From: Chlorokybus atmophyticus
Lineage: Eukaryota > Plantae > Mesostigma and Chlorokybus algae
Length of the DNA: 64,000 nt
Direction: 5' to 3'
Assembly: GCA_009103225.1 (NCBI GenBank)
Contig: RHPI01003533.1
Span: 244,713-308,712, forward strand
Below are positions 2,250 to 59,949 of the stretch, piece after piece. Numbering within the stretch: position 1 is the stretch's first letter; each line of letters begins with the position of its first letter. The notes beneath the pieces were generated by a model that saw only the letters and a program-made list of their open reading frames with translations, was not told where the DNA came from and did not search any database. Both the position numbers and the translations under genes were made by a program.

Positions 2250-2925
2250 TGTAACAGTCAAGGCCAAATTCTGTGATTTTCATGGCCGTTTTAGGCCTTA
2301 TTTGTAAGGTACATGTTTTTAATGACTTGTGGTGGATATCGGCGAGTTATGAGTCTGCCGCGGATATCGACTGGGGCCCCAAGACCAGTCCGGAAGGTGC
2401 CAGAAAACGGAGGGCCAGTCGAGAAGGGCTCGACCAGATTTCTGGAAGGGCCTGGCGCCAAGTAGTATAACTTGACCATATGAGCAGCAAATTATGAGAT
2501 CTTTGGTGCGTTGGAAAGGTCTAGAAGTGTACTACAAGATTCTGCAAGAATATCTTAGCTTCTAGTTCCGTCTAGCGCTAGAATCGTCTAGACAGTAGCA
2601 TGTGCAGACTGGTAGGTATAAAAGTGACATTTCACAATTTGCAATACAACCTTTAGCTCCCTAGTTAGTTTCTTGTGTGCAAGCTTGGTGGTGGCTAGCA
2701 GGGGTTGCTAGCGTGTGTCCACCGGTGTGTGCTTGCTTGTGTGACGATCCAAGGCGCTACACAAGTCGGTGTGTAGCTTCGAGCGCATGCGCGTGCGTAC
2801 GCGAGAGGCGGGGCGCGCGTGTGTGCTTGGCAGAGGGGGCAAGGTTCCGGTGTGAATACCGTGTCTTGGTGAGAGGGTTGTTGATTGGACCAACTCACAG
2901 GTGACAAGGCACGAGCACCGTCACA
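2250..2925 (+). repeat. 5' LTR of element 1 (676 bp)
   Basis: TG...CA termini, direct repeat of 7638-8314, followed by AC and the tRNA-iMet-type PBS. TATA-like GGTATAAAAG near 2615. Confidence 0.97.
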
Positions 2926-3019
2926 ACTGGTATCGGAGCACTGTTTACAAAGGTGAGAGAGGAAGTGTGTGGGCGATTACACTTTTCATTCGGAAGCGGA
3001 GTGTAGTGTGTTAGTGGAG

Positions 3020-4048
3020 ATGGAGGATGCTCGCATGGAAGAGCTTCAAGCTGCCATCTTAGCATTAAGAGAAGAGCTTCATCACACTCAAGCGGCGGCA
3101 CAAGCACAACGCGAGGCGTATGAGCATGCGATGGCGCGTGTACAAATTCCCATGGCATCAAGCTCGCGCGTGCATGTGAAGGTGCCAAAGCCCAAGCCAT
3201 TCAGGGGTCAACGTGATGGAGATGCAGTGGATGAATGGATTTTTCAAGTATCGTCTTGGTTGAAGCTCACGGAGGTGCCCACGCATCTGCACGTGGAGGT
3301 TGCAGCGACATTGCTTGAAGGTGCAGCACTTGTGTGGTGGAGGCATCGATGTACACGTGTTGCAAACGGGTTGGCGCTACCATTGACCACCATGGAAGAA
3401 TTGGCACTGGAGGTCAGGCATCAATTTGTTCCCGTTGAGAGCGTGAAGGCCGCACGCGACAAACTTGCAGCCCTTGTGCAAATGGGGTCGGTGATGGCGT
3501 ACACGGCCGCGTTTCAGCGATTGGTGATGTCCATACCCAATATGACCGAGGAGGAGCAGTTGGACAGGTATACACGTGGTTTAAAACCTTTGGGGCGTAA
3601 AGAAGTGGAGCTACGGGACCCGAAGACACTCGCGGAGGCTATACGCATCGCGGAGCGTCTCGACGCGTTGTACTTCAAGTCCACCACAAGAAACACTGAC
3701 TGGAGGCAAAGGCATGGTGATCAGCCCCGGGGAGGCGTTCAACATGCATGGAGACGAGGAGAACCAAGTTTAGCACTTGCAAATGGAGGTGGAGCTGACT
3801 GTGGGCCTGCACCAATGGAGGTGGGTGCCATACACACACATGGAAGTGAGGCGAAGCACGGCGGACGTGGTGAAAGAGGTAAAGGTGTGCGCAAGTGTTA
3901 TGCGTGTGGGTCGACGGAGCATTTGGCGTACGGATGCCCAACACGAAGCATGCGAAGGCCAACACCGGATGGCAACCCTCGCCGTGATCGTCGCGTCAAC
4001 ACCATGGAGCAAAATGGCGTGGAGCAGGAAAACGACTTTCCCCAGTAG
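3020..4048 (+). CDS. gag: Gag of element 1 (retrotransposon gag plus CCHC zinc knuckle)
   Basis: Open frame from ATG at 3020. Capsid-like motifs PKPFRGQRDGDAVDEWIFQV and VMAYTAAFQRL; knuckle CYACGSTEHLAYGC. Confidence 0.9.
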   Translation: MEDARMEELQAAILALREELHHTQAAAQAQREAYEHAMARVQIPMASSSRVHVKVPKPKPFRGQRDGDAVDEWIFQVSSWLKLTEVPTHLHVEVAATLLEGAALVWWRHRCTRVANGLALPLTTMEELALEVRHQFVPVESVKAARDKLAALVQMGSVMAYTAAFQRLVMSIPNMTEEEQLDRYTRGLKPLGRKEVELRDPKTLAEAIRIAERLDALYFKSTTRNTDWRQRHGDQPRGGVQHAWRRGEPSLALANGGGADCGPAPMEVGAIHTHGSEAKHGGRGERGKGVRKCYACGSTEHLAYGCPTRSMRRPTPDGNPRRDRRVNTMEQNGVEQENDFPQ

Positions 4049-7000
4049 GTGAGGAGGCTACTGCTGGGGATAGGAATGAGCCTCATGCACGGACGGATGC
4101 TGTGACTTTCGCATTAAAGAAGCAAGAGGAGATGGCTTTGAACGTGCCAATGGCGGTCAGTTATGCAAACGAGGAGACAACAAAGTACTTCGGGCTTCGA
4201 GCACACATTTGCGATGACCAAGGACGATGGAGAGAGTGTAAGCTCATGATTGATAGCGGTGCCAACAGCAACTTCATGAGTATTGATATCGCGCGGCGTT
4301 ACGGTTGGCTTTCGTCATTACGAAGAGGTGAAGTGAAGCTCGCTGATGGAGAGCCACCCTCTGGAGGTGATGGCGCTGCGTTTATGACCAAAGAGTTGTG
4401 CGTTCGCATTGGGAAGATGAAGGAGAGCATGCGATTTGCTGCATCACCCTACGGAACGGGTTTGATGGGATTTTCGGACTACCGTGGCTATGGCAACATA
4501 ATCCAGCCATCAATTGGAGGAAGCGCGTGCTCACCATCGAGCGAAACGGTGGAGAGTCCATTCAAGCTGCATCGGACGTCATCGAGGCGCGGCACGCACA
4601 ATTAGGTGGTACGACAATTGCCCAGATCTCTTATGTGCAATTGAGGAAGTTATTGTCTCCACGGAAGGCAAAGGCTGCATGGTTGTGCGTGGTGCGCGAA
4701 AACACTGCAAAGTCAGCACCGGAGATGAGTGACGATGTTCAGACAGCTACTATGGACCCCGAGGTGTGTAAACTTGTTAAAGAATACGAAGATATCATGG
4801 TGGACGGACTTCCATCTGGTCTACCACCTCCACGGAGCGTAGACCACCGTGTGGAGCTGATTGAGGGCGTGCACAAGCCACCGTATCGACCCGTATACAA
4901 GTTGTCACCTTTGGAACTGGAAGAGGCCGAGAGGCAGGTGGCGGACTTGCTGAAAAGAGGCTACATCAGGCCTAGTAAGTCCCCCTATGGTGCACCTATT
5001 TTGTTTGTACGAAAGAAGAACGGGAGCTTGCGCATGTGCGTCGACTACCGAGCTCTCAACAACATCACGCAGAGGAATTGCTTTCCACTCCCACGTATCG
5101 ACGAGTTGCTGGAGCAACTGCAAGGTGCGCAGTACTTCACAACACTTGATCTTGCTGGAGGTTATCACCAAATTCGCATCGTGCCCGAGGATGTGGAGAA
5201 AACAGCTTTTAACACACGTTATGGGCGCTACGAGTGGTTGGTCATGTCCTTCGGACTTACGAACGCACCGGCAACATTTCAAACGCTTATGAACAGCGTT
5301 TTTGCTGACTTGATTGGTAAGGGAGTCCTCGTGTACCTCGACGACATTTTGGTGTACGCGACAACAAAGGAGGAGCACGTGGCACTTCTACGGCGCGTGT
5401 TGCAGCGTTTGCGCGAACACAAGTTGTACGCCCAGCTACAGAAGTGCAAATTCTTGCTTCGAGAGGTGGAGTACCTAGGCCACATTGTGTCGCATGAAGG
5501 CATCAAGCCGGACCCCAACAAAGTGCAGGTGGTGCGCGAGTGGGCTGCCCCGACCAATGTAAAGGAGGTGATGTCCTTTTTAGGCCTTGCGGGGTATTAT
5601 CGCAAGTTTATCATGGGGTTTTCGCGCATAGCTGCTCCCTTGACTACCCTACTCAAGAAGGGAAAGCATTGGAGCTGGTCAGCAACAGAGGAACATGCAT
5701 TTGCTGCGTTGAAGAAGGCGCTGACGGAGGCACCAGTCCTGGCTCACCCCAACATGGAAAAGACATTTATTTTGGCTTGCGACGCGTCCGACACAGCCGT
5801 AGGAGCTGTTTTGCAGCAAGACCATGGCAACGGCCTTCAACCAGTAGCATNAAGCATTCTTCAGCAAAAAGATGAGTGGTGCGGAGATGAATTACCCCGT
5901 GCACGAGAAGGAACTTTTAGCGCAAGTCATGGCGCTACGACAATAGCGTTGTTTTTTGAAAGGCAAAAAGTTCGTGCTTGAAACGGATCACTCTCCACTG
6001 AGGTACTTACAAACACAACCTCATCTGAGTCGCAGACAAGCTCGATGGCTTGAGTTCTTTCAATTTTTTAACTTCGATATCAAGTACAAGCCCGGTACGT
6101 CAAATGGTGTTGCTGACGCGCTGAGCCGGCTTAATGCAATTGAGGCACTCGCTCAAGTGCAGCCCGAGTGGACCGACCAGATTCGGCAAGTGCTTCGTGA
6201 AGACACGCAGGGTATGAAAGTGTTGCAAGAGCTGGAAAATACAGCTACGGACACAAGTGGGCACTGGTCAATGCGCGACGGGCTGCTGTGGCACCATGGG
6301 CGCTTGTACATCCCCAACGTCGCGCATATCCGTGTGAAGTTGCTGAAGGAAGCTCATGACGTGCCCATTGCTGGTCACCAAGGGTTGGAAAGGACTTTGG
6401 CAAGCTTAAAACAGCGTTTTTACTGGCGAGAGATGCATCGCGATGTGCGCGACTACGTGGCGTTGTGCGACGCATGCCAAAGGGTGAAGGCAAGCAACCA
6501 AAAGCCAGGTGGGTTGCTGAAACCTCTCCCTGTGCCGTTGTCTTAGTGGGAGCAAGTTACCATGGACTTTATCACGGGGCTACCAAAGACAAAAGCAGGG
6601 TACGACGCTATACTTGTGTTCGTCGATAAAACCAGCAAAATGGTACGCTTGGCACCGTGTAGTGAGTCTTGCACGGCACCGGAGGCAGCACGCTTGTTCG
6701 TGAAGCATGTATTTCATTCTCATGGATTACCACGAAGCATTGTGAGTGATCGCGACCCGCGCTTTACAAGTAAGTTTTGGGAGGCGCTGCATAGTGCAAT
6801 AGGTACCACCTTGAAGTTTATCACGGCATTCCACCCGCAAACTAATGGGCAAACGGAGCGGGCCAACCGTGTGATCGAGGACATGCTGCGTTGCTACGGT
6901 AACGCGCGACAAGACAATTGGGAGGAGCTGCTTGAGTTGGTTGAGTTTGCGATCAACAACCACCACAATGCAAGCACAGGTGTCACTCCCTTCCTTATGA

Positions 7001-7695
7001 ACTACGGGCAACATCCATTGACACCGTTGACTGCATGGACACCGCGACGACATGACGTGCGTGTGGAGGCAGCTAATGACTTCCTTACAAAGTGCGCGGA
7101 CATTAACAAGGCAGCTAGGGATGCGTTATTGGTGGCACAAAATCGGCAGAAGCAGTACGCGGACGCGCATCGCCGACACCTCACGTTTCAGGAAGGCGAC
7201 ATTGTGTTACTCTCCGCGAAGCACGTCCAGGTGCGTAAGGGAGTTCGCAAGCTGAATGAACGCTGGTTGGGACCATTTAAGGTCAGCAAAGTTATCTCGG
7301 ACGTGGCGTACAAGTTTGAGCTACCCGACACCATGCGTGTGCACCCCGTTTTTCACGTCTCCCTTGTGAAAGCATATCGAGGACAACCGCCAAAAAGGCC
7401 ACCCCCCGAAGTTGGCACGAACGGTGAACCCGAGTGGGAGGTAGAAGACATCCTTGGTGAGAAGTTTGTGCATGGCGTACGCAAGTTCTTAGTGAAATGG
7501 AAGGGCTATCCGTTGCATGAAGCATCCTGGGAGCCAGAGGCACACTTGATTAATGCTCAAGACGTTGTGCGTGCTTATCTTGCTCGACGACAACCTCGCG
7601 AGCTTCGAGGACGAAGCTCACTTGGGGGGGGGAGGAGTGTAACAGTCAAGGCCAAATTCTGTGATTTTCATGGCCGTTTTAGGCCTTATTTGTAA
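4027..7695 (+). pseudogene. pol: Pol of element 1 (protease, RT, RNase H, integrase, chromodomain), disrupted
   Basis: PR motif LMIDSGAN; RT motifs LRMCVDYRALN and VYLDDILV; RH motif ACDASD; IN motifs H..PIAGHQG..CDAC, MDFITG, SDRDPRF and GQTERAN; WLGPFKV; chromodomain EWEVEDIL..FLVKWKGY..ASWEP. Lesions: 1-bp frameshift near 4450, in-frame TAG near 5944 and at 6544, and an assembly overlap (agcat-n-aagcat) at 5851. Confidence 0.93.
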
Positions 7696-8314
7696 GGTAC
7701 ATGTTTTTAATGACTTGTGGTGGATATCGGCGAGTTATGAGTCTGCCGCGGATATCGACTGGGGCCCCAAGACCAGTCCGGAAGGTGCCAGAAAACGGAG
7801 GGCCAGTCGAGAAGGGCTCGACCAGATTTCTGGAAGGGCCTGGCGCCAAGTAGTATAACTTGACCATATGAGCAGCAAATTATGAGATCTTTGGTGCGTT
7901 GGAAAGGTCTAGAAGTGTACTACAAGATTCTGCAAGAATATCTTAGCTTCTAGTTCCGTCTAGCGCTAGAATCGTCTAGACAGTAGCATGTGCAGACTGG
8001 TATAAAAGGTATAAAAGTGACATTCTACAATTTGCAATACAACCTTTAGCTCCCTAGTTTCTTGTGTGCAAGCTTGGTGGTGGTTAGCAGGGGTTGCTAG
8101 CGTGTGGCCACTGGTGTGTGCTTGCTTGTGTGACGATCCAAGGCGCTACACAAGTCGGTGTGTAGCTTCGAGCGCATGCGCGTGCGTACGCGAGTGGCGG
8201 GGCGCGTGTGTGTGCTTGGCGGAGGAGGCAATGTTCCGGTGTGAATACTGTGCCTTGGTGAGAGGGTTGTGGATTGGACCAACTCACAGGTAGCAAGGCA
8301 CGAGCACCGTCACA
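7638..8314 (+). repeat. 3' LTR of element 1 (677 bp)
   Basis: Immediately follows the PPT, has TG...CA termini, and is followed by TSD CAGGA. Confidence 0.97.
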
Positions 8315-8712
8315 CAGGAAGTAGAGAGACCACCCGCCCGTCGGACACATTTGATCCATTGACAGCGAAAACGCACGGTACTTTGGGAAGTGCGTTCCAC
8401 AACGTCCTGGCCGTGCGCGTCGCGCACAGTGGCCACACTTGCCGCACAAGCGTAGGGCGGGTTTCCTGACGCTGTACAGGCAGCGCATGTCCTGCAGCGC
8501 GCACAAGGACTGGCAGATCTAGAGTGAGGGGCTGCGGTGGTGGCGCTGGTACCGGGTTGCACGAGCACACACGTGGCAGCGCCGACGGCGGAGGACGACG
8601 CCGGAAGGCTAGCTAATGGCTAGCATAACTTTAGAGCTCCTCCCCACCGGACGGATAGCCGGCGGAGAGGATAGATTAATGCCGCCTATCCGTCATTTAT
8701 CTTACGAAACCA

Positions 8713-9334
8713 TGTGAGAAGCCGGTGGGTGACCGGTAGTGGCGCAGTCACCACCGTCATCCACGTGGCCTGTGCGCCGAACGTATTAGCACACACAGCT
8801 CATGCCCACCCGGGGAGGCAATGAGCAAAATTCATTGTGAAATTGTGACATTCACATAAGCACGCCATGCATCATTCACTCAAGTTTCAGAAGTCATTCT
8901 TGTATTAAAGATGCTTGAAGAGAAGGCGGCTCCCGGGTTGCCTACAAGTGAGCCGCTGAACTACTTTTATACCCTTGTCACTAGTCTTATCCAACTAGGC
9001 ATGCAATAACAAATAAGCTTATTAACCACTGTTTGATTAATAATGCAACTATAATATGTCGGCATAGCCACACTAGGGCATCTTCCCTAGCTATTTACAG
9101 CCATTTCCTGCAGTAAGACCCGTGGCTAACTGCCTTATTATGCGATCACATGGTTAATTAAATAACCAACATTATTTTAACTACATCAACACCTACTGGC
9201 CGTTGATGCAGCACCTCCTCGCCGTCTTCATCGCACGGTCGTCACGCTCCGCGCACGGTCTTCATCGTTGTGTCGTGATTGGACCACGCGGCCTGGTCAC
9301 TGTCTCGCTGCCGGGCACCCGTCTGGTACCCACA
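8713..9334 (-). repeat. 3' LTR of element 2 (622 bp)
   Basis: Direct repeat of 17471-18088. On the element strand it reads TGTGGGTACC...GGCTTCTCACA. Confidence 0.95.
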
Positions 9335-11990
9335 GATGTGAGAAGCCCCTCCCCACCAACACAAAAACCCACCTGGGTTTTGCTGAGGAAATTTTCACAT
9401 AATCCAGGGAATTCAGTAAACCCAGCAAACATTGCAGTAGGAGCCTGAGGTTGCACATTGAGCGGTCCTGGCAACAGCACGATCAGCACTCCTTCCGGGT
9501 TTCCCGGCATGGTCGTGGCGTGCACTGCATAATACTGGTATTTCTCGTCTGCTGGCAGTTGTACGGAGGTAGGGAAGAACCCACTCTTGCTGTTGATACA
9601 GGTTTTCATGCCCCGCACGTCCACCACAATTGGCCCAATTGATTTTGCAGCGCCTGTGACTGCTCTCTGGGTCTGCATGAGGCCCTGGTCGGAGCCATAT
9701 TGGTTCATGACCCCGGACTCGAATGGATTTATATCCGCCGTTGGCCCCAATTCTACCACGCCGTCGATGGAGCCGCCACGTCACGTACGGAAACGCGCAC
9801 AGGCGACTTGCCGTGGTGTCGCGGCGTACGAGCCCTTATTGGCGACCTGATGCGGTACGGTGACCTGTCGCGCGGCACCGTGAACTGCCCACGTGGCGAG
9901 TACCTACGCGGCGAACGCTCGCGACCGCGGTCCCTTGAGCGATGCCGAGTTGGTGAGCGCGATCGAGCTGGCTGGGGTGAGCGCGCCGATCGTTGTGAGC
10001 TGTGAGCCTTGCGATCCTTGCGATTGGGTTCAGCCCGGGGAAGATGATCTTTGTGAGCAGCAGTCCCGACCTGGGGCAATTCAGGTCCTTCCTGGGTAGG
10101 GACTGGTAGCCGTGTATCAATGTATTGCTTCAAGGCCGCGAACATCTTCTCCATCTCCGTGGGTGACTCCGGGGACTTCAAATTTGTCTGGTCTTGGGAC
10201 CCATTATGTAAATGAGGCGGCTTTAGGATTACTTGCTGGTTGGGTTTAGGCGTGTTTAGGACCCTGCCAATGCGCGTGATTCGACTGAACTTAGGAAGCG
10301 TGTCCGCCGCCGAGTCCACCATCACCACGTCGTCATCTTCAATACCCTTGCCGTCCCCCTAGACCACGCCATCCTTGGGCTCCTGGCTAACGCCAACATT
10401 CCTGCCGCCTGTCGGAACTCTCGTAATAACTTCCGGCATGATATCGGGAACTTGCCTATTAGCTTCCGTCCAAACTTCCCTTTTTTGGAATGGAAGCTTC
10501 CTTTGTAACTCTCATAATAACATCCTCAACAACTTCCGCAGCTACTTCCACGCCGACTGACGCCGTTGGCACTGCCTGGTCGACGGTGCCTGCCGCGTCG
10601 ACGCCCGTTTGCACTGCCGCTCCAGCGACAGAGCTCGTATTGTCTTCATAGTCCAAGGGGTCTTGGGAGGGAGACCTGGTGGACCCTGTTACTTGAACAG
10701 GCTTGGGTGCTGCTGGCACGCTCACTTGCCGGGTGGGCACCTGACCCAAAACCACATTATCATCAGCCAAAATAGGCTGTAATAAAGTGTTTTCTGTAGA
10801 AATTGTGCAATAATAGCCACATTGTTGCCAATCAATAACAGGTTGCTGTATTTCAGCTTCCTCACTGCTTGCGGCCAACATCTCATCCACAGCGTTGCGC
10901 ACACCCTCAGCTAATCCTGACTCATCTTCATTGTATTGTGATGGTAGCAGATTAGCCAATGTCAGTGGGTTGCTCTCATGAATTCTCGTAGCAGCAGGTT
11001 GAGGTGCAAACACAGATGCATCAATGCACAGCTGTCGAGTACGCACAAGTTTGCCTCCCATAACTGTAGTTGGACGCTTCACAAACTCAAAGCCCATAAA
11101 TTGTTGTAGCTTTTGCTTGCGTTTGCTACTCAATCTACTTGCTTGAGAGCGTACCAGCTTAGCGGGGCTGTCGTCAAGCTGATAAGTGAATTCTGGTGAT
11201 TCGCGTGTCACTTTCTTCTGCTGTTCATCCCAGAGGAAGGGCGTTTGCCCCGGTGCTGGTGGTGATGGGTAGGACGCCTTGTCCACCTTTGTTGTCATGC
11301 GCGGATAGACAACAGCATGGCCACAAGCTTGACGCCATCCATTCACCCAAGCTGCACGCTCATGTGTGTTGCCAGACTGCTTGTGACGAGGGATGGTGTC
11401 ATGCAGCCTCTCCGGTAGTCCAGGTGGATACTCTAGCCGGTTGTTGATTTTTGCGGGTGCCATGCTGCAACAATAAGCCTTATTGAGTCCTTTTTTAAGG
11501 CTTAATTGATGACTTTTGGCTATGCAGTTAGCTGTGCAGTCAGTCTCTGCTATTGATGCCACTGGAGCAACTCTTGACTGTGACAACTGACTGGGTATGG
11601 CACACCTGCGGCATCCTCAGTGCCCGCCCTGCCTACCCACGTCCCCAGTCACATTATGCCGCCTCAGCAACGTCGCACACACACCTTAACACTGACAAGC
11701 CTGGCTTGGCAATGACTGCCAGTCACTGCCACACTGCAGTGCAACCAGCATACCTGCAGGCTGCAGCTGCTGCTGCGAGCCGCTGCCGGCAGAGGGCGTG
11801 ATGATGGCAATGGCAGGGCGTGCTGCCACAGCCCGCGCATGTCTCCACTGACGTCGCCGCCGTCGTACCTCGGCTGCCGCTCCCGCCGCTGCCGCCGCCG
11901 CTGACCAGTGCTGCTGCACTGGCAACCTCAAAAAGGCTGCAGTTGGCCTTTTCAAGCCGCCGACCGGTGTTGGCCGATTGCGGCCTTCTT
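9262..11990 (-). pseudogene. Accessory (extra) ORF region of element 2, unknown function, fragmented
   Basis: Sense-strand ORFs of 375 aa (10459-11586), 191 aa RS-rich (9753-10328) and 165 aa (9262-9759) between pol and the PPT. A candidate GT-AG intron at 11606-11753 joins an upstream Cys/His-rich frame in frame. No recognisable family. Confidence 0.6.
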
Positions 11991-12144
11991 TTACAATTGT
12001 TTTTTGGGGTTTTTCGGCCTCAAATTCGGCCTTTCCTCAATTTGCCAGCCGCGAGTCTCAGGGCCGTCGATCTTATCCGACGGTCACCATGAGTTCGCGC
12101 GGCTTGCGAATCATGGCGCCGCGGAAGGCCCTTCCTGGGCCTTT

Positions 12145-15100
12145 CTAGGCCCTGTTTGCAGCGTCAGCTGCGCCTCTAACCTTGAAGGGGGTAATTCTCT
12201 CCACATTCACTGTTTCTTGCTTCAAACAAGCTATGTGCTCAACCAAGATAGTTGTTTTGGCCGTGTTGCATATCTCTTTGATCACATAACCTCCTTTCCA
12301 ATTGCCAGCAGCCCCTGCTGCTCTGGGACCGGTTCTCAGCATCACAGTTTGCCCAACCTGCAACCACGCTAGTTGAGTTGGGTCAAGTGGTTGCTTCCTT
12401 GTTGCAAAGTCCTCAATCTGCTTCTGCTGAGCTTGCTCAATATTCACCAGAGCTCGATCATAAAGCCTGCTCACAGACTCTTGGCGTTTCAGCAGCAATG
12501 CAGCTAAGTCCGCCTCTCCCATTGTGGCATAATCCAACTCCTCTATCTCTGAGTTGCTGACCACATTATCAAGCTGAAGCTTGGGGTCTCTGTGATACAC
12601 CATCTTAAACGGTGTCACGCGAGTGCTGCGTTGCTTGGTTACACGGTAGGTGAACAGCACTTGTTGCAAATTCTGCTCCCACCGGTCTCCCACCATGCTT
12701 TTGAACAATGCCAACTTCACTGTCCCATTTATTCTCTCAACCAACCCATTTGTTTGCGGGTGGTAAGCGTCTGAGTTGACGTTCTCAACATTGTAGCGTG
12801 ACAGCAAGTCTTGCACTTCACTGTTGAGAAACTCTTTCCCATTGTCACTCTGAATGATAGCGGGAACACCATGACGGCAGATGATGTCCTCAAGCAGAAA
12901 CTGGCGCACATGAATGCCCTCTTTTGAAGGAATTGCCTTTGCCTCGACCCATTTAATGAGGTAATCAATGGCCATGACAATGTACTTGTTGCCCTTTACT
13001 GTCTCAGGCAGTGGTCCAATCAAATCAATTCCCACTCCGTGAAAGGCTTCACCAGTCACTTTGATTGGATGCAAGGGAGCAGGCTCACGGGATGTACGCC
13101 GGTGCTCTTGGCAACTCATGCAAGAGTTCACATACTCTGTCACTTCCTGAGTCATCCCATACCAGAAGAATCGAGGGCGCAACATTTCAAGCACCTTGCC
13201 AGCACTTGGGTGATGCATGTTGTCGTGATGCATCTGGATGATACCACGCCTCAGACTCTTAGGTGGAACTCTGCGAGTCACCATCTGTGGCCGATCATCC
13301 TTATCATAAGTGCTTCTCCCCTTCTTGTTGCCAGGCCTGGTCCAGACCTCACTGCCTTTCATTGCAAAGCCTTTGGCTCGCTTGCGTACTCGCCTCCTTT
13401 CTTGCTTTGACAGTGCTTTGATGCTGGATGGTTCCTTCAAGTATGTGAGCAACACCTGATCATCCATCACATCTTTTATGGGCTTGCCAGCTGAAAGTTT
13501 TGATGGGGGTAAAGTTTGCGCTTCAACTGGAGCCTCCACTATGTCCTCCCCTTCACCATCGCTCACCTGAGCCACAAGGCTTGGCATAGTGTCTGATTCA
13601 GCAACGTCTTCCCCCTCAGTGCATGTCTCAAGTGCCTCCTCTTGTGCCTTATTGCCGAGGTCAAGCTCATCAGAAGACATCCCCCCCACACGCACTACCT
13701 CTTCTTCAGCAGTGTATAAGTCTGGAGGATTGCGGCTCAGCGCATCCACATGGTCGTGGTTCTTGCCAGGCTCATACTCCACCACAAAGTCATACTCCAG
13801 CAGCTTGAGTGACCATCTGGTGAGCTTGCCCGTAGGATCAACCGTATTCATCAACCATTTCAGAGGGCGATAATCCGTCACCACCGTGAAGGTTGTACCA
13901 TGCAGGTAGTGCCTTCACATCTCCACACTCCACACGGTAGCGAGGCACTCTTTTTCAGTTACACTGTAGTTTCGCTCAGCCTTGTTGAGCATCCGGCTGG
14001 CATAAGCTACAACATACTCTTGGTTGTCCACACGCTGTGACAATATAGCTCCCAAGGCATAGTCTGAGGCATCCGTCATCACCACAAAAGGCATATCCAG
14101 ATCTGGCCTCCTCAACACTGGAGCAGTGGTCAACGCGTGTTTCAGCTCATCAAACACTTGCTGCTGCTCTCCCCCCCACACAAATGGCACCACACTGGAC
14201 GTCAACTCAGTGAGTAGTTGTGCTTTCTTGCTGAAGTTCTCCACAAACCTTCTGTAGTATGAAGCTAACCCCAAGAATGAGCGCACACGTGTTTGTGTAG
14301 TTAGCACAGAGCACTCATGTAATGCCTTCAGCTTGCTGGCTTGTGGTTTCACCCCATTCTCCATTAGGTCATGTCCCAACATGTCAACCTCATACATGCC
14401 AAACTTGCACTTCTCGAGTTCCGCCACAAGCTGTGCGTCACGCAGGGCTTGCATCACCAAGTTCAAATGCTGAATGTGTTCTTCAAAGGTGTTGGAGTAC
14501 ACAATGATGTCGTCAAAGAACACCAGCACGAACTTGTTGCTGTACTTTTTCAACACTGGCGTCATCAGCCTTTGGAACGTCGCTGGTGCATTGGTGAGAC
14601 CGAAGGGCATGGTGTTAAATTCATACAAGCCTGTCTTGGTAACAAAAGCTGTCTTCTCACGGTCATGAGGCTCCACCCACACCTGATGGTAAGCAGACAG
14701 CAAGTCCAACTTGCTGAAGTACTTGGCTTTGCCCACACTGTCCAAAATGTCGTCACACCTTGGCACAGGAAACCTGTCTTTCTTTGTGACCTCATTCAGC
14801 TTGCGGTAGTCTATGCAAAGCCGCCAGCCGCGGCCGTTAGGCTTGGGCACCATCACAATCGGTGAAGACCATGGGCTTGATGAGGGACTCACAATGCCAG
14901 CCTGCAGCATGTGTGTTCAACTTCTTCTTCAATCTGCTGATCCTCAGCACGTGAAGTGCGGTATGGCTTTTGCACAATGGGGCGAGCATCTTCAGTGTCA
15001 ATCGCATGTGTCACCATGTTAGTGCCAGGCACTCTCTCTCCCAACACAAACTCTTGCTTGGTAGCAAAGAGATCATCAAACTTGCTCAGCAACTCCACCA

Positions 15101-16780
15101 CCTCCTCCCTTTCTGAGTGTGCTAACTCAGAGTTGATGGGAAGCTGATGCACTGTCATAATCTTTTCAGCTTGCTTGACCTCTATGCCTGGGGAAGATGT
15201 GAAGGACATTGTGACACCCGCTCTAAGCTCTCCGTCAAAGGTGAGCTGCCTGCTGGAGAATGAGAGATTTGCACCAGCTCGAGCTAGCCAGTCCGTGCCA
15301 ACCAGCAGGTCATCCATTGTTGAGGGGCTGACGTTTACGCGTACGGCATGCGTAATATCACCAATGGTAATGGGGAGCTCCTCAAGCACTCCCAAAAAGG
15401 CGCACTTGTTACCATTGGCAACTCTCATGACTCGGCGGGTGGGTTGCATTGAACTTTGCAAGCCTAACGCTTCCATCAAGGTTATTCCCATCACAGTGCA
15501 TGATGCACCTGAGTCAATCACAGCCTCCACCTCCCGACCCATGATGGTTACTGTAGCATAGGTGGCAGTATGCTCAGTAGACTCAGTCATGTGCACCACT
15601 TGAGTGTCGCTCTTCTCAAGCTTTCTGAGGTAGGTAGTCAATTGCTGTCTGTGTTGAGGACTCACTTTCAACAGTTGCTTGATAGAGATCTTGGCAGTGA
15701 CGTAGTCTAATTGCTCCAGCACATCATAGTTCTCTCCCTTTGCCACCTCATGTGAAGTGTGCATCTTCACAGGCTTGGTCCACACAGCTGTCACCTCTTC
15801 AGTCTCAGGCAGGTGTGGTGCAGATGCGCATGCTGCCGCAGCAGTGCTGCAGGAGGGCACATCCGATGCAGCTGGAATAAGCATGGTTGGCTTGTCATGC
15901 TTAACCTCATCCTCACTGTCACTCATTGCCACCACCATAGACACTTTGGAGGTTGACCCCACCACGTTGCTTGGTGTTGCCATTTGCTCCTTGACCTTGG
16001 CTGCTGCCCATTTGGGCCACATGGGCTTGATGTGACCTGTCTCGTGACAATAATAGCACTGCCTGGTGTCTGGTCTCACTCCTCCCTTCCTGCATAGGCG
16101 TTGCCTTGCTGATAAGCTTGAGGCTGTGTCTTTGTCACCACCTCTGCTAGATGTACCTTTTGTTCAGTCAATTGTTTCATCATAGCATCCATTTTCTTCT
16201 GCAAGTCTGCTAATGCACTTGCCTCCTTTGCCAAGACTTGCTCTTTGCCAACTTGCGCTGCCTGCATAATGCCCTCAAAAACTACAGCATCATTGATGGC
16301 TTGCTCCAATTCCTCAGGCCTTCTGTTAATAACCTTCTCACGCAAGTCTGGCCTCAAGCCTTGTATAAAGCGCGTCTTCTTCCAAGGGTTTGAAAACTCT
16401 CCCCCCAAGCGATCCATGAGCTTCTTCAGGTGGTCTGCGTACGTGCGCACGCTCTCGTTGACCCCTTGCTTCTTGTCATGCAACTCATTCATGTAGATGC
16501 TTGGGTCCCCCACATCAAAGCGTTCTTTCATGGCCACTTTCAGTCCTGCCCAGGTGCTGAACTCACGAGTCAGGTACCAAGTCTGTGCCTCATCCCTCAG
16601 GTGTGTGGCTGCCAGCTTGTACGTGATCTCCTCATTCCAGTTATAGGCATTAGCCATCATGTCTACATGCCTCAGCCATGCTATAACATCCTCCTTCAGC
16701 TGACCATGAAATGTACTGAGCTTTGGTGAAGGCAGCACCACCCTAGGTACAGCAGAAGTAATCTCTGTCACTGCTGCCAT
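12145..16780 (-). pseudogene. Gag-Pol of element 2, disrupted
   Basis: Gag from ATG at 16780 (KLSTFHG..EDVIAWL); knuckle CYYCHETGHIKPMW (last Cys lost); PR motif AVIDSGAS; RT motifs WRLCIDYRKLN and VFFDDIIV; RH motif MTDASD; IN motifs HH..CMSC, GIDLIG, SDNGKEF and GLVERIN. Frameshifts near 16080 and 14905, in-frame TGA at 13915-13917. No chromodomain. Confidence 0.92.
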
Positions 16781-17470
16781 GGTGTTTTTCTGTTGCTTTT
16801 TTCTTTTCGTAGGTTCCACCCCCTCACTCAGGCTTAGCTGAGGGTTTTGTTGTAACCCCTTCCTGGTAAGTGGGCGGTCCTCAATTTTTGTTGGGTGATG
16901 TTTTGTTGGCAGGCCCAAAGGAATTAATCAATAAAATTGTAGAGTATTGCTGGCACAACCTGCAAATACCCCCTCTCCCTCAACGTGAGGTGGAGTAATT
17001 TTACATGATTAAAACCCCCCCACAGGAGTGTTTTGGTTGGTAATTTTCTGTTTTTCTTGCTGCAATTTTGGCTAAGTCCTTGGTGTCTCACAAGGGTGAG
17101 TTGGGCTGGAGCACCGTCCTTCGTCGTCACGCCCGGCAGCGCGTCGTCACACTTGCCGTCACACTTGCCGTCACTCTTGCCGCCCCACGCCCTGCCACCC
17201 GCTGTTCCTTAATCCACTTAATACTCCAGAGTTAAGGTCGCGTCCTCAACTCAATTAAGTGATTACGAACGGCCCTGCAGTGCTGTTCGCGGCTACTGCC
17301 GTAGGTGTAACACCTACGTCCCTTTGGCAGTGCTACGCAACCCTATTTGGCGGTCGTAGGTTTCACACCTACATCGGCGGTCGTAGGTTTTATACCTAGT
17401 GGTGTCCGGTACCCCACAAATGGCTTATTATCACCGGCCTAACTGGCCCAATGACCGCTCCGATACCAAA

Positions 17471-18088
17471 AGAAGCCGGTGGATGACCGGTAGTGGCGCA
17501 GTCACCATCGTCATTCACGTGGCCTGTGCGCCGAACGTATTAGCACACACAGCTCATGCCCACCCGGGGAGGCAATGAGCAAAATTCATTGTGAAATTGT
17601 GACATTCACATAAGCACGCCATGCATCATTCACTCAAGTTTCAGAAGTCATTCTTGTATCAAAGATGCTTGAAGACAAGGCGGCTCCCGGGTTGCCTACA
17701 AGTGAGCCGCTGAACTACTTTTATACCCTTGTCACTGGTCTTATCCAACTAGGCATGCAATAACAAATAAGCTTATTAACCACTGTTTGATTAATAATGC
17801 AACTATTATATGTCGGCATAGCCACACTAGGGCATCTTCCCTAGCTATTTACAGCCATTTCCTGCAGTAAGACCCGTGGCTAACTGCCTTATTATGCGAT
17901 CACATGGTTAATTAAATAACCAACATTATTTTAACTACATCAACACCTACTGGCCGTTGATGCAGCACCTCCTCGCCGTCTTCATCGCACGGTCGTCACG
18001 CTCCGCGCACGGTCTTCATCGTTGTGTCGTGATTGGACCACGCGGCCTGGTCGCTGTCTCGCTGCCGGGCACCCGTCTAGTACCCACA
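17471..18088 (-). repeat. 5' LTR of element 2 (618 bp; lacks the terminal CACA next to the PBS)
   Basis: The element strand ends ...CCGGCTTCT-TT-TGGTATCGGAGC, versus ...CCGGCTTCTCACA in the 3' LTR. Confidence 0.93.
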
Positions 18089-19459
18089 ACCACTCCCCAC
18101 CGGCGCGATAAGTGGCCTCCTATCCATTGCGCGCCAGGATAGCGCGATGGATAGGAGGGTCAGATAGATGAGGACTATCCTAGAAAAGATAAATCATTTC
18201 TAGGATAGTTGGAGCGGTGGGATAGGAGTTGATTGCGCCCCAACACTTGACGCGTGTGCTTCTGACAGTAGGAATTGTGGTTGGCGGGAATTACAAAATA
18301 GGGTTAGGGAGATTTCAGCAGCATTGGTGGCAGAGGCAGCAGGGGCGGCGGCAGCGGCGGTGGGGGAGGTGGCGGGCGCACGCGGTGCTGGGTGGTTGAT
18401 TAGGGCGTTGCATTGCAAGTGGCGTTAAATTGTTGCCGCTTATGGCCGGCTGCAATTGGCTGCGCCGAGCTGATGGTAGTGTGTTCGATCGCTACCAGGA
18501 CAATCAGTACGTCACAGGTGTGTTCCGGACCAAAACCATGCAATGGGTGTTTATGGTTGTGGTTGTGTTGTTGTTGTTGTTGTTGTTGTTGTTGTCGTTT
18601 TTGTTGTTGTTGAGGAGGAGGAGGAGAAAGAGGGGGAGGAAGTGGAGAGGGACGAGGACTTGACGTGCTGTCAATCATGCTTATTGTAGTTGCATTCTTG
18701 TTGTTGTTGTTGAGGAGGAGGAGGAGGAGGTGGAGAGGGGTTGAGGAGGAGGAGGAGGAGGAAAGTAGATTGTGCAGTCAGTGCTGCTATGATTTTGTGT
18801 GTATGCGCATGGAGTGGATTGTACTGTCATTCATGTTGTGTTTGTGTGTGGGGGTGCAGAGCTGCAGGAGGAGGAGGAGCGGCGTCAGGCACAGGCAACC
18901 AAGTCTCACACCCTTGCATTTAATACGTGTGGCCCATACAATGGAGTCCTTGTGCCTGCTGGCTATGACAGTCAGCCGGCATGGGATGAATTGCAGAGCT
19001 AATCTCAGCAACGTCAACAGGTTGCTGTATTATCATGTTGCAATATTGTCATGTGTTGTGTTCGGTTTATGAGGTCTATGCATGCATGTGCAACTTGGAC
19101 GTGCAACTGAGTATGCATCTTGTTCATGGGATCAATCGCAGAGCCAACCTTACAAGCAATGCCTGGGCAGGTGGGCAACTGTCAGTGCTTGCAGTTTTGC
19201 TGTGCTGTTACGTGCTTTCATACTTGTAGTTTGATTTGTATTGGTTCTCAAGCAACTTGATCAGGATGGGCCATTGGGGAGACCATCTACCTCCCATACA
19301 TGCATGCAGCAACTAGCGCCTCCTGCTGGTCGGCCCTTCATGCATCCCTACATAAACAAGCACACGCCAATGCCAGCCACACCTGGCGCTGGGCATCAGC
19401 CAGCATTTCTTCCTCCTGCACACACGCCACACCCATTTTAGGTGACGATAAGCAACCTA

Positions 19460-19495
<36 letters not shown>

Positions 19496-22400
19496 TCTGA
19501 AACATTGCTGCATGTAGAACTGCTCGGGAGTGCCACCCACACACCCCAGCGACCCGCGTGGTGCACACCCGTCCTTCAGCAACGCACACACGCCAGCTCA
19601 AGTCGTGAGTGCTATACATCCTGCACATTACCTCAACCACAATTGCTGATGCTGCCATGCGTGCAACTGCTTATGATGGCATCTGCTCTTGCACCTGTTG
19701 AATTGTTAATGTGTTGAGCGGGTACACTGGTGTACAGTCGGCACCATCCCACGACACCCAAGCTTCACATGGTGCGGAAGGCTTGAACAAAGACGACTCG
19801 ACACAGCACCTCGACATGCAACCCAACGCCCATGATGTTGGCAATGAACAGGCAGACACAGGGGTGAGTTAGTAGCATGACACCATTGCTTGCTGTAAAG
19901 TGCTGCAGCTGGACATGATTGATTAATGCATGGGGCGCAGCAGACTCAAGGCGATCCTGCTGGCAAGAAGCGAAAAGCAACAGCAAAGCGCATCAAAGAC
20001 GGTGTTGGACATGTCGCAAAGCAAATAAAAACCCGGGCACGAGAAATGCGAACAGCCTCCACCCATCTAGGTCCAGTCAAATACTGAGCATGACGATCCC
20101 ACCACACTTCATCACGGAAATATTTCCACACTCGTCCGGTGAGGAGCATCCCAGACTCTGTGAGCAGCTGGCCAAGCATGGCTAAAAGCTGAGTAGATGG
20201 GTATGTTGCCAGAGGTCTTTGCGAGAGCGGTGATGGTGCATGAGCCATCTCCAGCAACATGTCCTCTTCATCATATATCTGAGCCAGCTGCAACCGAGTA
20301 TCTTCCATTTACACGTCCATAAAGCCAATCGAGACCACTTGTTGCTGCACATTCAGCAACCACATGACGATGATGACGCTTATTGCAGTGGCGTCATCCA
20401 TTGTCTGTGCAATTGGGTCTGCACAGGCATGCACAGCTTGTTGGAATTGCGAGCAGCATGTCAACCTCATCACATATATACACACGGTTGTGTTACAATG
20501 TGCTTGCATGATGTTTGGCATGCTGTGAGTGATGTCATGCATGTCTACAACTACTGGCAGCATATCCTGTCATCACACAAGCATCACTGCTACTTCAACT
20601 GCCAGTCATAGAGCAAAGAAACACAACTTGTAAAAGGATTTCAAGTATTATGCCTAGCAACATTCAGAGTCAATGCTAACTTAGGTATCAAGTATCACCC
20701 ACTTACATGCTAGCTAGCCTGTCCTCACAATTTAATTTGCACGCCTGACGCTGCATTACAATCCATGCTTCACCGCTCTGGTACTGGCCGACGCAGACCT
20801 GCCACAAGCTGAAGGTCAGATCTTGATTTGTGTGCCGCTCACATGTATGCCGACACACACTCCCATATAGACACCCACCAACGCAGACGCACTGACTGAC
20901 TAGCAACCCACCCACCCACCCACCCACCCACCCACCCACACACCCACACACACACTGATGCACTGACGAACGCACTGTCTGACGCGAACACGACTTACTC
21001 CAACTACCCCACCTCATGCACAGACACACGAGCCACACACGCACACACCAAAGCACCGACTGCCTGACTGACGAGCTGCAGTGCCAGCGCCTCGCCCACC
21101 CCCCAACCCCACCCCACACATACCCACGCACACAAACGTTTGCACACCGCACTGAATGATACGCATTCATACGACTCACCCGTATGCCTATTGTGCTGCT
21201 GTGCTGCCAACCGCCGCCAACCACAACACGCCTGTTGCCGCCGCCCAAGACGCCAACGCCACCACCACCACCAGAGCAGCGCTAGCGCCAGCGCCACCAC
21301 CACCACCAGAGCAGGGCGTCACAATGGCGGCAAATCACGCCCTCGTCACTCGAGGGCTCCCGCTGCTAGCAAAACCCTAATCCGCTAGTAGTCGGTGTAG
21401 ACTATACACCGAGGCTCGCAATAGGATGTGATAAATGAGCTGTTTTTCGAACGATTTATGTTCTATCCTATTCGACTGCTATTTGTCCGGTAGGGAGAGC
21501 CTCTTAATGCTTGGTTAGGCAGGGACGTTAACATATATCTGTATGCCTCTTGTGTCCGTTTTATTGCGTAAGAGCAAGGCGGCACTCAGAGTGCCGTTTA
21601 CGCAGTAAGGCCCTCACTCATTGTTACTGTTCAACTAGGTAAACATCGCATGTTCGGTGGACCAATAAGTTTGACTAAGTGAACTCCAATGGCATTGCTG
21701 TCACCTAAACCAGGGTTGTTGTACCACCACAAAAGTGTTTACCGTCACATTGTTGTGATAAACACTCTTTGACTACGAAGTGATGTTCGTGTAGACCAAT
21801 AACATAACATTTAATCATCAATTCAAATTATATGTGCGCGAATCCTATTCAATGGTGTTGAAACGATACTCCATTGATCTTATTGACATGCGGCCGATAT
21901 TGCGTCAAAAGTCATATCTGCGTAATTGGATTCGCTCGGCAAGTTGCCAATGACTTGGCAAGCGGTCCGAACATCTTGCATGCAATATAACTGCATTTGT
22001 CAACCAGTTCGATCGCTGCGGGCATGTGGAGGGTTGCGCAAAATAAAGAGTGTAGGCAGCGAGGATTTATCACAACATGCACATGGCGGATGAGGCTGAT
22101 CGTGAGTGTGAGGATAGCCAGCATGAGCACCATGAGCACAAAAAAGAACGTTCCATGCCTGGCAAGAAGGCTGATTAGCTCAGGTTTTGAAAACAATTAT
22201 GGGTTGCCGACGGCTTTGATATGTGCGGTAGCTATTGCAGCACTTGCATGGCACATTAATGGCAGTGTATACAGAAAAACACGTTGGTGCACTGCTATAA
22301 AAGGGGTTTGAATGTGTTTGTAAAGCTTATGAGCGCTTCATCCTCAATAAGCCCGATGGGTTCATGGAGCAGTGGAACAAGTTGAACAAAAGTAGGTTTT

Positions 22401-27739: not shown

Positions 27740-29050
27740 CCTGTTGTACATCCACTGCAACTTGTTGAAAGAACACTCTTAGCATATCCTTCACGTTGCA
27801 TGGCAATTGAAAGTGCTACCATATAAGACAGAAAGTGGGCTGTATACCGTATACATGACGTGCTCAAGCGTAAGAAGCAGATACATTGTAACACAACTAC
27901 CCCCAACTTAGCATGTGACGCAATGTTGGTTGCTGGGTGTGGGGCCCTTCTCCTTTGTATCTGTGACGGTGCTCGTGCCTTGTCACCTGTGAGTTGGTCC
28001 AATCCACAACCCTCTCACCAAGACACGGTATTCACACCGGAACCTTGCCCCCTCTGCCAAGCACACACGCGCGCCCCGCCACTCGCGTACGCACGCGCAT
28101 GCGCTCGAAGCTACACACCGACTTGTGTAGCGCCTTGGATCGTCACACAAGCAAGCACACACCAGTGGCCACACGCTAGCAACCCCTGCTAACCACCACC
28201 AAGCTTGCACACCAGAAACTAGGGAGCTAAAGGTTGTATTGCAAATTGTAGAATGTCACTTTGATACCAGTCTGCACATGCTACTGTCTAGACGATTCTA
28301 GCGCTAGACGGAACTAGAAGCTAAGATATTCTTGCAGAATCTTGTAGTACACTTCTAGACCTTTCCAACGCACCAAAGATCTCCTAATTTGCTGCTCATA
28401 TGGTCAAGTTATACTACTTGGCGCCAGGCCCTTCCAGAAATCTGGTCGAGCCCTTCTCGACTGGCCCTCCGTTTTCTGGCACCTTCCGGACTGGTCTTGG
28501 GGCCCCGGTCGATATCCGCGGCAGACTCATAACTCGCCGATATCCGCCACAAGTCATTAAAAACATGTACCTTACAAATAAGGCCTAAAACGGCCATGAA
28601 AATCACAGAATTTGGCCTTGACTGTTACAGTATCCCCGCAAACTATAGCTTGTTCAATTTGCAATAAATCTGTCAGCACAATCCCTCATCATGTGTTTGT
28701 AACAATGTCATATTTAAGAATGCAATAGAAGTGCCACTAGCAGACGAAATGAGAGTGAGTGTCTGCTGCGGATAGATGCCCCCTCCCAAAGCAGTCTCCC
28801 CCGCATACGTCACAACTTTAACCTCTGGCAAGTCTAGTATTAAAACATCATCCACATAACTCCGGACGGACATACACCATTTGTGCAAGGGGTCTAAGTG
28901 CCCTTGAGCCCTGAGCGTGCGGATCAATGTCAATTCCTTTTTGCTCAAGTAGAGATTGGCCAAGTCGACAATGTTTATTAGACACCCGCATTGTTGCCCA
29001 TTGGTATTTCAATGGCTTGTTTATGCAACCGGTCTCCTGCAGTGCTGACA
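27740..29050 (-). mobile_element. Decayed Penelope-like element RT (Chlamys-like), split by the solo LTR
   Basis: Motifs in the correct order on the minus strand: KQAIEIPMGNNAGV, LANLYL, RSYVDDVL, GGIYP, IAFLNMTL, IYCKL. After the solo LTR is removed: HPATNIASHAKLGVVVLQCICFLRLS and REGY (thumb region). Contains stops and frameshifts. Confidence 0.75.
27962..28629 (-). mobile_element. Solo LTR of the element 1 family
   Basis: Reverse complement of the 2250/7638 LTR, full length, flanked by 5-bp TSD GTATC (27957-27961 and 28630-28634). Confidence 0.96.
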
Positions 29051-59900: not shown

Positions 59901-59949
59901 TGACCTAGATCAAGCCTAAGTCAAAACTTGCAACGGATTACTTAGCACG

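Follow-up and report, generated by a model that had tools for sequence, protein, structure and literature searches.

We found that the LTR retrotransposon lying on the minus strand at positions 8713-18088 of the window (the whole 64,000-nucleotide stretch of Chlorokybus atmophyticus DNA analysed here) represents a Ty3/gypsy family with an end layout that our literature search did not turn up elsewhere. This layout is best accounted for if the two cDNA ends pair via a 7-nt repeat and so give a CACA-TC-TGTG junction that would be cut by integrase, a reading to which we assign a probability of roughly 0.55. A broader proposal, whose chances we put a little short of even, is that of a green-plant lineage of DDE-integrase LTR elements, possibly old, in which circularised 2-LTR DNA closed via the 7-nt repeat would be the obligatory precursor and each element would carry its own junction after the polypurine tract (PPT). 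The features of the element are as follows, in the order in which they are read.

18089-18092, minus strand: left TSD copy, 4 bp, TGGT, in the flank directly before the 5' LTR
17471-18088, minus strand: 5' LTR, 618 nt, TGTGGG...CCACCGGCTTCT, without terminal CACA
17469-17470, minus strand: TT spacer between U5 and PBS, 1 base longer in one other copy
17457-17468, minus strand: PBS, TGGTATCGGAGC, identical to the PBS of element 1
16076-16927, minus strand: gag (Retrotrans_gag, Ty3_capsid), stop-to-stop frame
14889-16163, minus strand: last part of gag, then aspartyl protease; the frame is disrupted on either side
13915-14916, minus strand: reverse transcriptase (FFDD) with the start of RNase H, up to an in-frame stop
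12145-13914, minus strand: remaining RNase H, acidic linker, HHCC zinc finger and rve integrase core
10459-11616, minus strand: additional sense frame, 385 codons, without Pfam family
9753-10358, minus strand: additional sense frame, 201 codons, Arg/Ser/Pro-rich, without Pfam family
9262-9780, minus strand: candidate frame, 172 codons, crossing PPT and 11-mer and reaching into the 3' LTR, without Pfam family
9348-9357, minus strand: polypurine tract, GGTGGGGAGG, its purine run extending 2 nt into the 11-mer
9337-9347, minus strand: right terminus repeated internally, GGCTTCTCACA, 11 nt, identical in the run X2 copy
9335-9336, minus strand: TC spacer, 2 nt, between CACA and TGTG, making a ready-made LTR-LTR-type junction
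8713-9334, minus strand: 3' LTR, 622 nt, TGTGGG...GGCTTCTCACA
8709-8712, minus strand: right TSD copy, 4 bp, TGGT (ACCA on the plus strand), directly after the 3' LTR

Read along the minus strand, the 5' LTR ends GGCTTCT-TT-PBS, with CACA absent, and the integrated 3' LTR ends GGCTTCTCACA and adjoins the 4-bp TSD. An exact 11-nt copy of this 3' LTR end, followed by TC, is placed between the PPT and the 3' LTR; the opening 7 nt of this copy are the same as those that close the 5' LTR. The layout of the 5' LTR, the 3' LTR, the 11-mer with TC and the TSD had been noted in a preliminary description of this DNA and proved exact when we re-examined the sequence. It departs from the canonical layout at both ends: no CA is present at the 5' LTR end before the PBS, the two LTRs are not co-terminal, and the PPT, instead of abutting the 3' LTR, stands 13 nt away from TGTG. 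The usual gap between PPT and 3' LTR is 0-3 nt, as is also seen in element 1 of the same window. By its likeness to a plant motif, the PBS is a putative initiator tRNA-Met site. Nine differences over 618 positions separate the 5' and 3' LTRs, and the window copy is disrupted in gag-pol. The window contains two exact occurrences of the 11-mer and none with 1 mismatch, and the identity of the internal copy to the LTR end breaks off at exactly 11 nt. The chance of such an 11-mer ending at most 7 positions from the LTR start is between 1.2e-6 (base composition) and 2.2e-6 (first-order Markov); the shuffle mean of 1.49 refers to matches with at most 1 mismatch anywhere in the window and says nothing on position. 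The split layout of the LTR ends is therefore not due to chance. A 5-bp TSD (TGGTT, with the LTR starting GTGGG) also fits the letters; this reading was rejected, as the TGTG...CACA symmetry is then lost. RNA folds of the two odd junctions gave nothing decisive.

To see how the layout is distributed in the family, we looked at contigs from public runs. The contigs crossing 17469-17471 came from run X1 (records 3, 4 and 5 and one chimeric contig), and all four run across the 5' LTR/PBS junction without CACA; their complete indel table holds no CACA insertion at the junction, and they represent at least two further variants beyond the window copy. No canonical variant with a CACA-ended 5' LTR was seen among the public run contigs crossing this junction. 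In a contig of run X2, which differs from the 3' LTR region of the window at 10 of 642 bases, the LTR start runs exactly into TC, the 11-mer and the PPT. The 11-mer is thus kept at about 1.6% divergence, which gives no sign of selection. Eight sites distinguish the LTR variant of X1 and X2 from both window LTRs (contig rows paired by hand), and the other copies carry none of the five checkable locus-private LTR changes (three in the U5 of the 5' LTR, two in the 3' LTR). They also have small indels at or beside the frame breaks of the window copy. A related subfamily, with LTR identity of about 85%, is represented by record 7 of X1 and record 12 of X2. In run X3, a 160-nt contig (record 17) matches the window without a single difference across the right insertion junction; the left insertion junction lies outside contig coverage. 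Part of the element was present in two of the six runs listed, none of the runs listed being an RNA run containing the element; run X4 gave short unrelated matches only and run X5 no match. The run contigs cover the element and hardly its unique flanks, which fits RNA or another strain alike and was given no weight.

A one-off event or an assembly artefact is unlikely as the source of the layout, because other copies have both odd junctions and none has a CACA-ended 5' LTR. The comparison of family copies called for in the preliminary description thus found both odd junctions to be common to others, and against the mis-assembly that it had raised stand the contigs from other copies, which show both, and the X3 contig across the right insertion junction. 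Differences between the sequences support, indirectly, that the other copies are probably independent insertions. They are known as short contigs without flanks, with one flanked insertion site in hand, and they may also be alleles or segmental duplicates, a question on which 0/5 shared changes is weak evidence. This bears on another explanation, in which a single accident (e.g. a mostly deleted tandem LTR together with CACA loss) spread without faithful retrotransposition, as alleles, as segmental duplicates or as recombinants with an unseen co-packaged canonical master, the 5' LTR then coming from one RNA and the right end from the other. A second insertion site was not recovered, the runs may derive from different strains, gag-pol of the window copy is broken and the T run before the PBS is longer in one other copy, all of which would suit such an accident; moreover, rare variants are lost from contigs, so a canonical master could escape notice. 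We nevertheless consider it distinctly unlikely. It requires two separate mishaps moving exactly one same terminus, and it has to face the lack of U5-CACA-PBS in all four crossing contigs, at least two distinct variants inside one run and an LTR set apart from both window LTRs by 8 sites. Indels by the frame breaks of the window copy are, in addition, expected of less decayed copies that still have the split layout.

We then considered how these ends could be made. In canonical LTR replication, the right cDNA end is templated by U5 beside the PBS. It had been argued from this that the right end of the element would be made without CACA, and the reasoning was upheld. By established LTR replication, the right end is fixed at GGCTTCT-TT because the minus strand is tRNA-primed, and the left end is extended by 11-13 nt before TGTG because the plus strand is PPT-primed. 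Standard reverse transcription cannot yield the observed right end, and therefore CACA must be copied from the left end. In the circle model, the two 3' ends would anneal, plus-strand GGCTTCT with minus-strand AGAAGCC. The 2-nt TT flap would then be trimmed and the gap filled in by RT or by host microhomology-type repair, so that a 2-LTR circle, open or sealed, would carry the joint CACA-TC-TGTG. Nicking by integrase after the CA of each strand would leave a pair of CA-3'OH ends, each with a 2-nt 5' overhang, and ordinary strand transfer would produce the 4-bp TSD. The predicted product has TGTG...CACA outer ends, a 5' LTR lacking CACA and the internal 11-mer; since it retains the split layout, the layout would reproduce itself in every cycle. 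We rejected a scheme in which a 1-LTR circle integrates at its internal junction, as the product would have one LTR and end at the 11-mer, unlike the observed layout.

That a single event accounts for both odd ends together favours the circle model, as do the intact integrase triad, the lack of a tyrosine recombinase in the frames scanned and the presence of the layout in other copies. Several points count against it. Integrase must spare the identical internal junction by the PPT, and the junction is an imperfect palindrome (TGTGGG versus TGTGAG, with the TC spacer), when foamy virus integrase required a perfect palindrome in its junction (PMC1180852). In orthoretroviruses, the integration precursor has been proven to be linear DNA (PMC11054761). 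A 'splint', or third strand transfer, would keep this linear precursor (PMC11054761) and dispense with host ligation, with an information flow equal to that of the circle model and an identical integrated product. The first step would be an integrase nick behind the CA of the left end, at a distance of 11-13 nt from its tip. Either the short strand so released or the end still attached would pair with GGCTTCT at the right end and serve there as template for CACA-TC, after which integrase would trim the usual 2 nt and the linear molecule would integrate. This scheme demands more ordered steps and processing far from the DNA tip, and its bare 7-bp duplex is weak (-7.9 kcal/mol), so that we regard it as rather unlikely.

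The circle model also lacks an explanation for the likeness of the target site to the PPT on the left and to the PBS on the right. The left flank before the TSD ends GGTGGGGAG, a 9/9 match to the PPT core of which the window has 3 copies, and the right flank starts TGGTTTCG, a 7/8 match to the PBS that is equalled at 20 of 94,682 scanned positions. Flanks resembling PPT and PBS are the signature known for integrase-less Tf1 (PMC11042837), and by analogy single-stranded PBS and PPT tails could have annealed to a look-alike target without integrase, the apparent TSD and the CACA end being by-products. This we hold to be very improbable: it explains neither the source of CACA nor the 11-mer common to other copies, and both ends are precise, with TG...CA and TSD, whereas the integrase-independent events described for Tf1 are truncated or without TSD (PMC11042837). 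The PPT-like word, moreover, occurs again at 8640, within a hairpin- and CTATCC-rich host repeat found on both insertion sides, and the resemblance of the flanks was noticed after the fact. A tandem-array reading, in which the PPT and PBS in the flanks would belong to an older element, was discarded, both flanks lying in one CTATCC/hairpin-rich stretch.

As controls, we used other elements. Element 1 (2250-8314, plus strand) and its solo LTR (27962-28629) show the canonical layout and have 5-bp TSDs, confirming what had been said of element 1. A scan of genome contigs gave 14 contaminating gypsy loci (RT identity 32-58% in the best segment), which served as controls only; among these distant loci CA + 2 nt + PBS was found in 4 of 14 (2 families), the remaining 10 being without readable junction. 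Two 'split' matches from a loose regular-expression scan (L005 and L011) were set aside, neither being at a shown LTR start, and the sole metagenome-contig match to the exact 19-nt junction (L001) is a chance one without any BLAST similarity to the window. Scans of viral contigs for related loci found no relatives, and a degenerate gypsy element at about 55-61 kb in the window has no readable termini. Our literature search, whose scope excluded most subscription papers and Repbase reports, found no description of the split layout.

The assignment to Ty3/gypsy comes from the Gag-PR-RT-RH-IN order with Ty3-type domains and from the direct LTRs, PBS, PPT, TSD and TG...CA outer termini. The integrase is of the DDE (rve) type, with an HHCC finger and an intact DD35E triad (D297-D357-(35)-E393), and no tyrosine recombinase was found in the 7 frames scanned. 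The element is not a chromovirus: the domain scan had no Chromo match after the integrase. The scan also gave no second RNase H family, such as the archaeal-type one of Tat/OTA. The best RT match reaches 55% over full length (among 120 matches listed) and the best IN match about 42% (among 150 listed), so none of the protein matches listed is a close relative. In a quick tree from 117 rows, the RT falls outside a 33-row clade (SH-aLRT 98) containing element 1 as well as chromodomain-bearing proteins of Closterium and Tarenaya. In both this tree and a second one (FastTree, 53 rows picked from 114 candidates, few named plant rows passing the filter), the element has a long branch and no starred sister group, the trees including no named Phygy or Selgy rows.

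If the circle reading is true, one natural lineage breaks the rule that only linear DNA, its ends set by two primers, is integrated, and 2-LTR circles are not mere side products there. What is new would be an element obliged to use the junction route, precedents being optional. It would offer a system where junction cleavage by a retroviral-type integrase, debated for foamy virus and HIV-1, is required, and would tie Ty3/gypsy to the Ngaro split-end design and to circle-forming bacterial insertion sequences. Structure-based LTR finders would class such elements as ordinary because the outer ends are normal (TG...CA, TSD), and further split-end elements may hide in existing libraries.

Among known lineages, Phygy, Selgy and TatI resemble the element in having no chromodomain, a 4-bp TSD and a 5-9 kb range; compared by description, they differ in their tRNA-Trp or tRNA-Ala PBSs (PMC6317226). 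The 4-bp TSD is shared with Phygy, whose NCGN target and mostly tRNA-Trp PBS are not found here (TSD TGGT/ACCA, PBS that of element 1, Met-type), and the aRH domain of TatI is likewise not in the element (PMC6317226). The available text of that source describes no split terminus for the three, and in it Neumann et al. 2019 report no non-chromoviruses among the algae sampled (PMC6317226). Ngaro, of the DIRS order, has an A1-[ORFs]-B1A2B2 structure that is formally the same (LTR body, ORFs, terminal piece, LTR body, terminal piece), so the split-repeat arrangement is formally present here with an 11-nt B (PMC8547959). Ngaro has a tyrosine recombinase, however, and the element a DDE integrase, tRNA-type PBS, PPT and TSD, and its 'B' piece is just 11 nt, with 7 nt overlapping A (PMC8547959).

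Integration from a circle junction was proposed by Panganiban and Temin in 1984 and dropped as the main route when the unjoined 5' ends proved to be 2 nt and not the predicted 4 nt (PMC11054761). The preliminary description was right about this rejection for orthoretroviruses; a correction to it is that the circle-junction model has some precedent (PMC1180852 for foamy integrase, PMC4372172 for HIV circles). The element would have in common with the 1984 model and with HIV-1 2-LTR circles, which can be linearised and integrated as a back-up substrate, an LTR-LTR junction substrate and a retroviral-type integrase (PMC11054761, PMC4372172). Since its spacer is 2 nt, the 5'-end-length test would not discriminate for it, and its standard linear product, unlike that of the retroviruses of the 1984 model, is without the right CA end; the abandoned pathway would here be the normal life cycle. 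Prototype foamy virus comes close to the proposed route, with a DDE integrase and 2 nt between the CA ends: in vitro its integrase cleaves an LTR-LTR junction with this spacer on both strands after CA to give cohesive ends whose 5' overhangs are 2 nt long (Delelis et al. 2005, PMC1180852). Its LTRs are complete, its junction is a blunt-end palindrome and the route was proposed beside linear integration (PMC1180852), whereas our element has no right end until the left has served as its template, and its joint is already encoded downstream of the PPT. A bacterial copy-out/paste-in transposase also integrates end-end junctions with spacers, and in insertion sequences of this kind (ISCth4/IS256, IS911, IS30) a circle is integrated at an end-spacer-end junction as proposed here (PMC7780238). 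These insertion sequences have a DNA-only cycle and a junction that the transposase makes from flanking DNA, with a variable spacer (PMC7780238); in the Chlorokybus element, by contrast, the spacer is encoded within the element itself.

We looked at the ends of the Ty3/gypsy element with the split right terminus, using element 1, another LTR retrotransposon of the window, as a control for the end layout. The features concerned were:

8713-18088, minus strand: the element, bounded by two TGGT copies, its junctions cut out of the minus-strand reading
2250-8314, plus strand: element 1, a canonical chromovirus with a 5-bp TSD
27962-28629, minus strand: solo LTR of the family of element 1, with its own 5-bp TSD

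The preliminary description had given the element a 5' LTR lacking CACA, an 11-mer plus TC beside the PPT and a 3' LTR ending in CACA, and this was borne out when each junction was re-cut. The 5' LTR (618 nt) has the terminal sequence CCACCGGCTTCT, then TT and the PBS TGGTATCGGAGC, while the terminal sequence of the 3' LTR (622 nt) is CCACCGGCTTCTCACA; the two LTRs differ at 9 of 618 sites. The PPT GGTGGGGAGG is separated from the 3' LTR by TC and, before it, GGCTTCTCACA, the 11-mer that is an internal copy of the right LTR end (9337-9347, minus strand). This 11-mer occurs twice within the window, and by chance it would land beside the LTR start with a probability of about 1-2e-6. Canonical ends and 5-bp TSDs are seen in element 1 and in the solo LTR of its family, in agreement with the canonical layout already ascribed to element 1. 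About 50 nt past the PBS of the element lies a sequence that loosely mimics the start of the LTR (17404-17418, minus strand, 12 of 15 aligned positions), at or near which other copies have substitutions and a 2-base deletion.

Chlorokybus atmophyticus is an early-branching streptophyte alga, and the species to which the protein prefix jgi/Chlat1 refers. By its proteins, the element is Ty3/gypsy: Pfam detected Gag, protease, RT, RNase H and an HHCC-rve integrase in the order of that group, and neither a chromodomain nor a tyrosine recombinase was found in the Pfam scan of its frames. The integrase DD35E is intact, and gag-pol is disrupted by two frame changes and one stop. Three extra sense frames without a Pfam family lie between the integrase and the 3' LTR (9262-11616, minus strand), one being Arg/Ser-rich and one passing through the PPT and the 11-mer. 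Among the matches listed, no close relatives were found (RT at most 55% over full length, integrase at most about 42%). In both trees (a quick method and FastTree), the element was a long branch lying outside the clade that unites element 1 with plant proteins carrying a chromodomain, and none of the groups next to it was starred as its sister. In the available part of PMC6317226, Phygy, Selgy and TatI are tabulated with a 4-bp TSD and no chromodomain, like the element, although its PBS and target motif do not fit Phygy; from the algae sampled there, that study reported no non-chromoviruses. The window also contains:

about 55100-61100, minus strand: degenerate gypsy retaining remnants of RT, RNase H and integrase, its decayed LTRs about 78% alike
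38006-39082 and 41812-42898: decayed direct-repeat pair, spacing about 3.8 kb
49367-49504 and 53235-53346: decayed direct-repeat pair, spacing about 3.8 kb
32210-34311, plus strand: exons of the host methylcrotonyl-CoA carboxylase beta chain, one of which matches a jgi/Chlat1 protein at 100% identity across 99 residues

The degenerate gypsy is followed by a Cys/His motif that we take to be PHD-finger-like. Both repeat pairs are possibly old LTR elements; no match to the proteins of the element was found at either.

To find other copies of the family, contigs of public sequencing runs were compared with the element. Two runs (X1 and X2) contain parts of the family, and the X1 contigs were aligned to 17250-18250. 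Those crossing the 5' LTR/PBS junction were:

17361-17524: X1 record 3, with 7 other letters and a T run one base longer
17361-17482: X1 record 4
17453-17524: X1 record 5, with 3 other letters, all in U5
ending at 17497: a chimeric X1 contig

None of the four is canonical at this junction, and only record 3 extends beyond it by more than 31 letters in both directions. Records 4 and 5, which have 30 letters in common, probably derive from a single copy. The complete indel table of these contigs holds no CACA insertion at the junction, so CACA is absent from at least two further variants of the family. The chimeric contig fuses the integrase region (12488) to the U5 end and PBS (17497) via a short shared word, and reflects either rearrangement of a copy or chimera formation in the library. 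On the other side, a 664-nt X2 contig aligns without gaps to 8761-9402, where 10 of its letters differ, and its loose end is exactly TC, 11-mer and PPT. In the rows listed, a 555-nt LTR contig of X1 carries the substitutions of the X2 contig; its overlap with the PBS contigs that lack CACA is 30 letters long. Comparing inner junctions across copies, as had been proposed, therefore makes an aberrant single-copy event unlikely: both odd junctions are present elsewhere, and the split-end layout is real and common to other copies. An X3 contig spans the right insertion junction of the window copy without differences, and no useful match was found among the contigs of X4 and X5. In paired alignment rows, there are 8 sites at which the X1/X2 LTR matches neither LTR of the window copy, and none of the 5 checkable locus-private LTR changes of the window copy was found in other copies. 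This favours separate insertions, although alleles or duplicates would also fit, since flanks were recovered for one insertion only. With a divergence of 1.6%, retention of the 11-mer is no sign of selection. That an accident spread passively, or that copies recombined with an unseen canonical master, we consider improbable. A related subfamily (X1 record 7, 4329 nt; X2 record 12, 6147 nt) matches LTR pieces at about 85%.

As established for LTR replication, what adjoins the PBS becomes the right cDNA end, and what follows the PPT becomes the left one. For the element, this predicts a right end that reads GGCTTCT-TT and lacks CA, and a left end on which TGTG is preceded by 11-13 additional bases. 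Neither is present in the integrated copy, indicating that CACA was copied from the PPT-side copy and that the left end was cut internally; standard replication cannot reproduce this layout. The two cDNA 3' ends are complementary across 7 nt, through which they could anneal. Trimming of the TT flap and gap filling would then produce a 2-LTR circle, whether open or sealed, whose joint reads CACA-TC-TGTG, and nicking each strand once, after CA, would leave standard CA-3'OH ends with 2-nt overhangs, whose strand transfer would yield exactly the layout observed. We give this rebuilding of the right end through annealed ends and a 2-LTR joint, which is then cut, a probability of roughly 0.55; that circularised 2-LTR DNA is the obligatory integration precursor is put at slightly under even odds. 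Against the circle count the junction being an imperfect palindrome and a second, internal junction copy having to escape cutting. A splint, with integrase acting first and no circle, would lead to the same final product, but seems unlikely.

The target resembles the element itself. Its left side (18093-18101, minus strand) matches the PPT at 9 of 9 positions, a word occurring three times in the window, and its right side (8705-8712, minus strand) matches the PBS at 7 of 8, equalled at 20 of 94,682 scanned positions. This may possibly reflect homology-guided targeting, or chance. The interrupted host DNA (8616-8712 and 18093-18240) is hairpin-rich, contains 9 of the 23 CTATCC/GGATAG words present in the window and, from its sequence, looks like a small DNA-transposon-like repeat, a diverged piece of which lies near 21430-21520. 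Flanks resembling PPT and PBS might suggest insertion by annealing independently of integrase (compare the available part of PMC11042837), but this route has no source for CACA and the PPT-like word is found again in the interrupted repeat, making it very improbable.

As controls, the 5' LTR/PBS junction was readable in 4 of 14 distant gypsy loci (two families), and all four were canonical. Locus L007:1-15554, a contaminant of a cyanobacterial MAG, is a gypsy of 15.5 kb that carries additional long ORFs. Its 5' LTR/PBS is canonical, and no purine tract is obvious ahead of its LTR start; in L012 this element is assembled in permuted form with a single LTR. In the literature searched, whose coverage is partial, no description of the split-end layout was found, including the available part of PMC5006619. 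As far as the accessible portions of these papers go, the retroviral circle-junction model was dropped, linear DNA being active and the unjoined ends 2 nt rather than 4 (PMC11054761); 2-LTR circles of HIV-1 can serve as a back-up (PMC4372172), and those of plants are regarded as end-joining products and markers of activity (PMC10959353). In vitro, processed ends arise when foamy virus integrase cuts a junction whose spacer is 2 nt (PMC1180852). The parts of the element are in the order of the split repeats of Ngaro, although it is not of that family (PMC8547959, in part), and copy-out/paste-in insertion sequences, to which it does not belong either, integrate from a junction as a rule (PMC7780238, in part).
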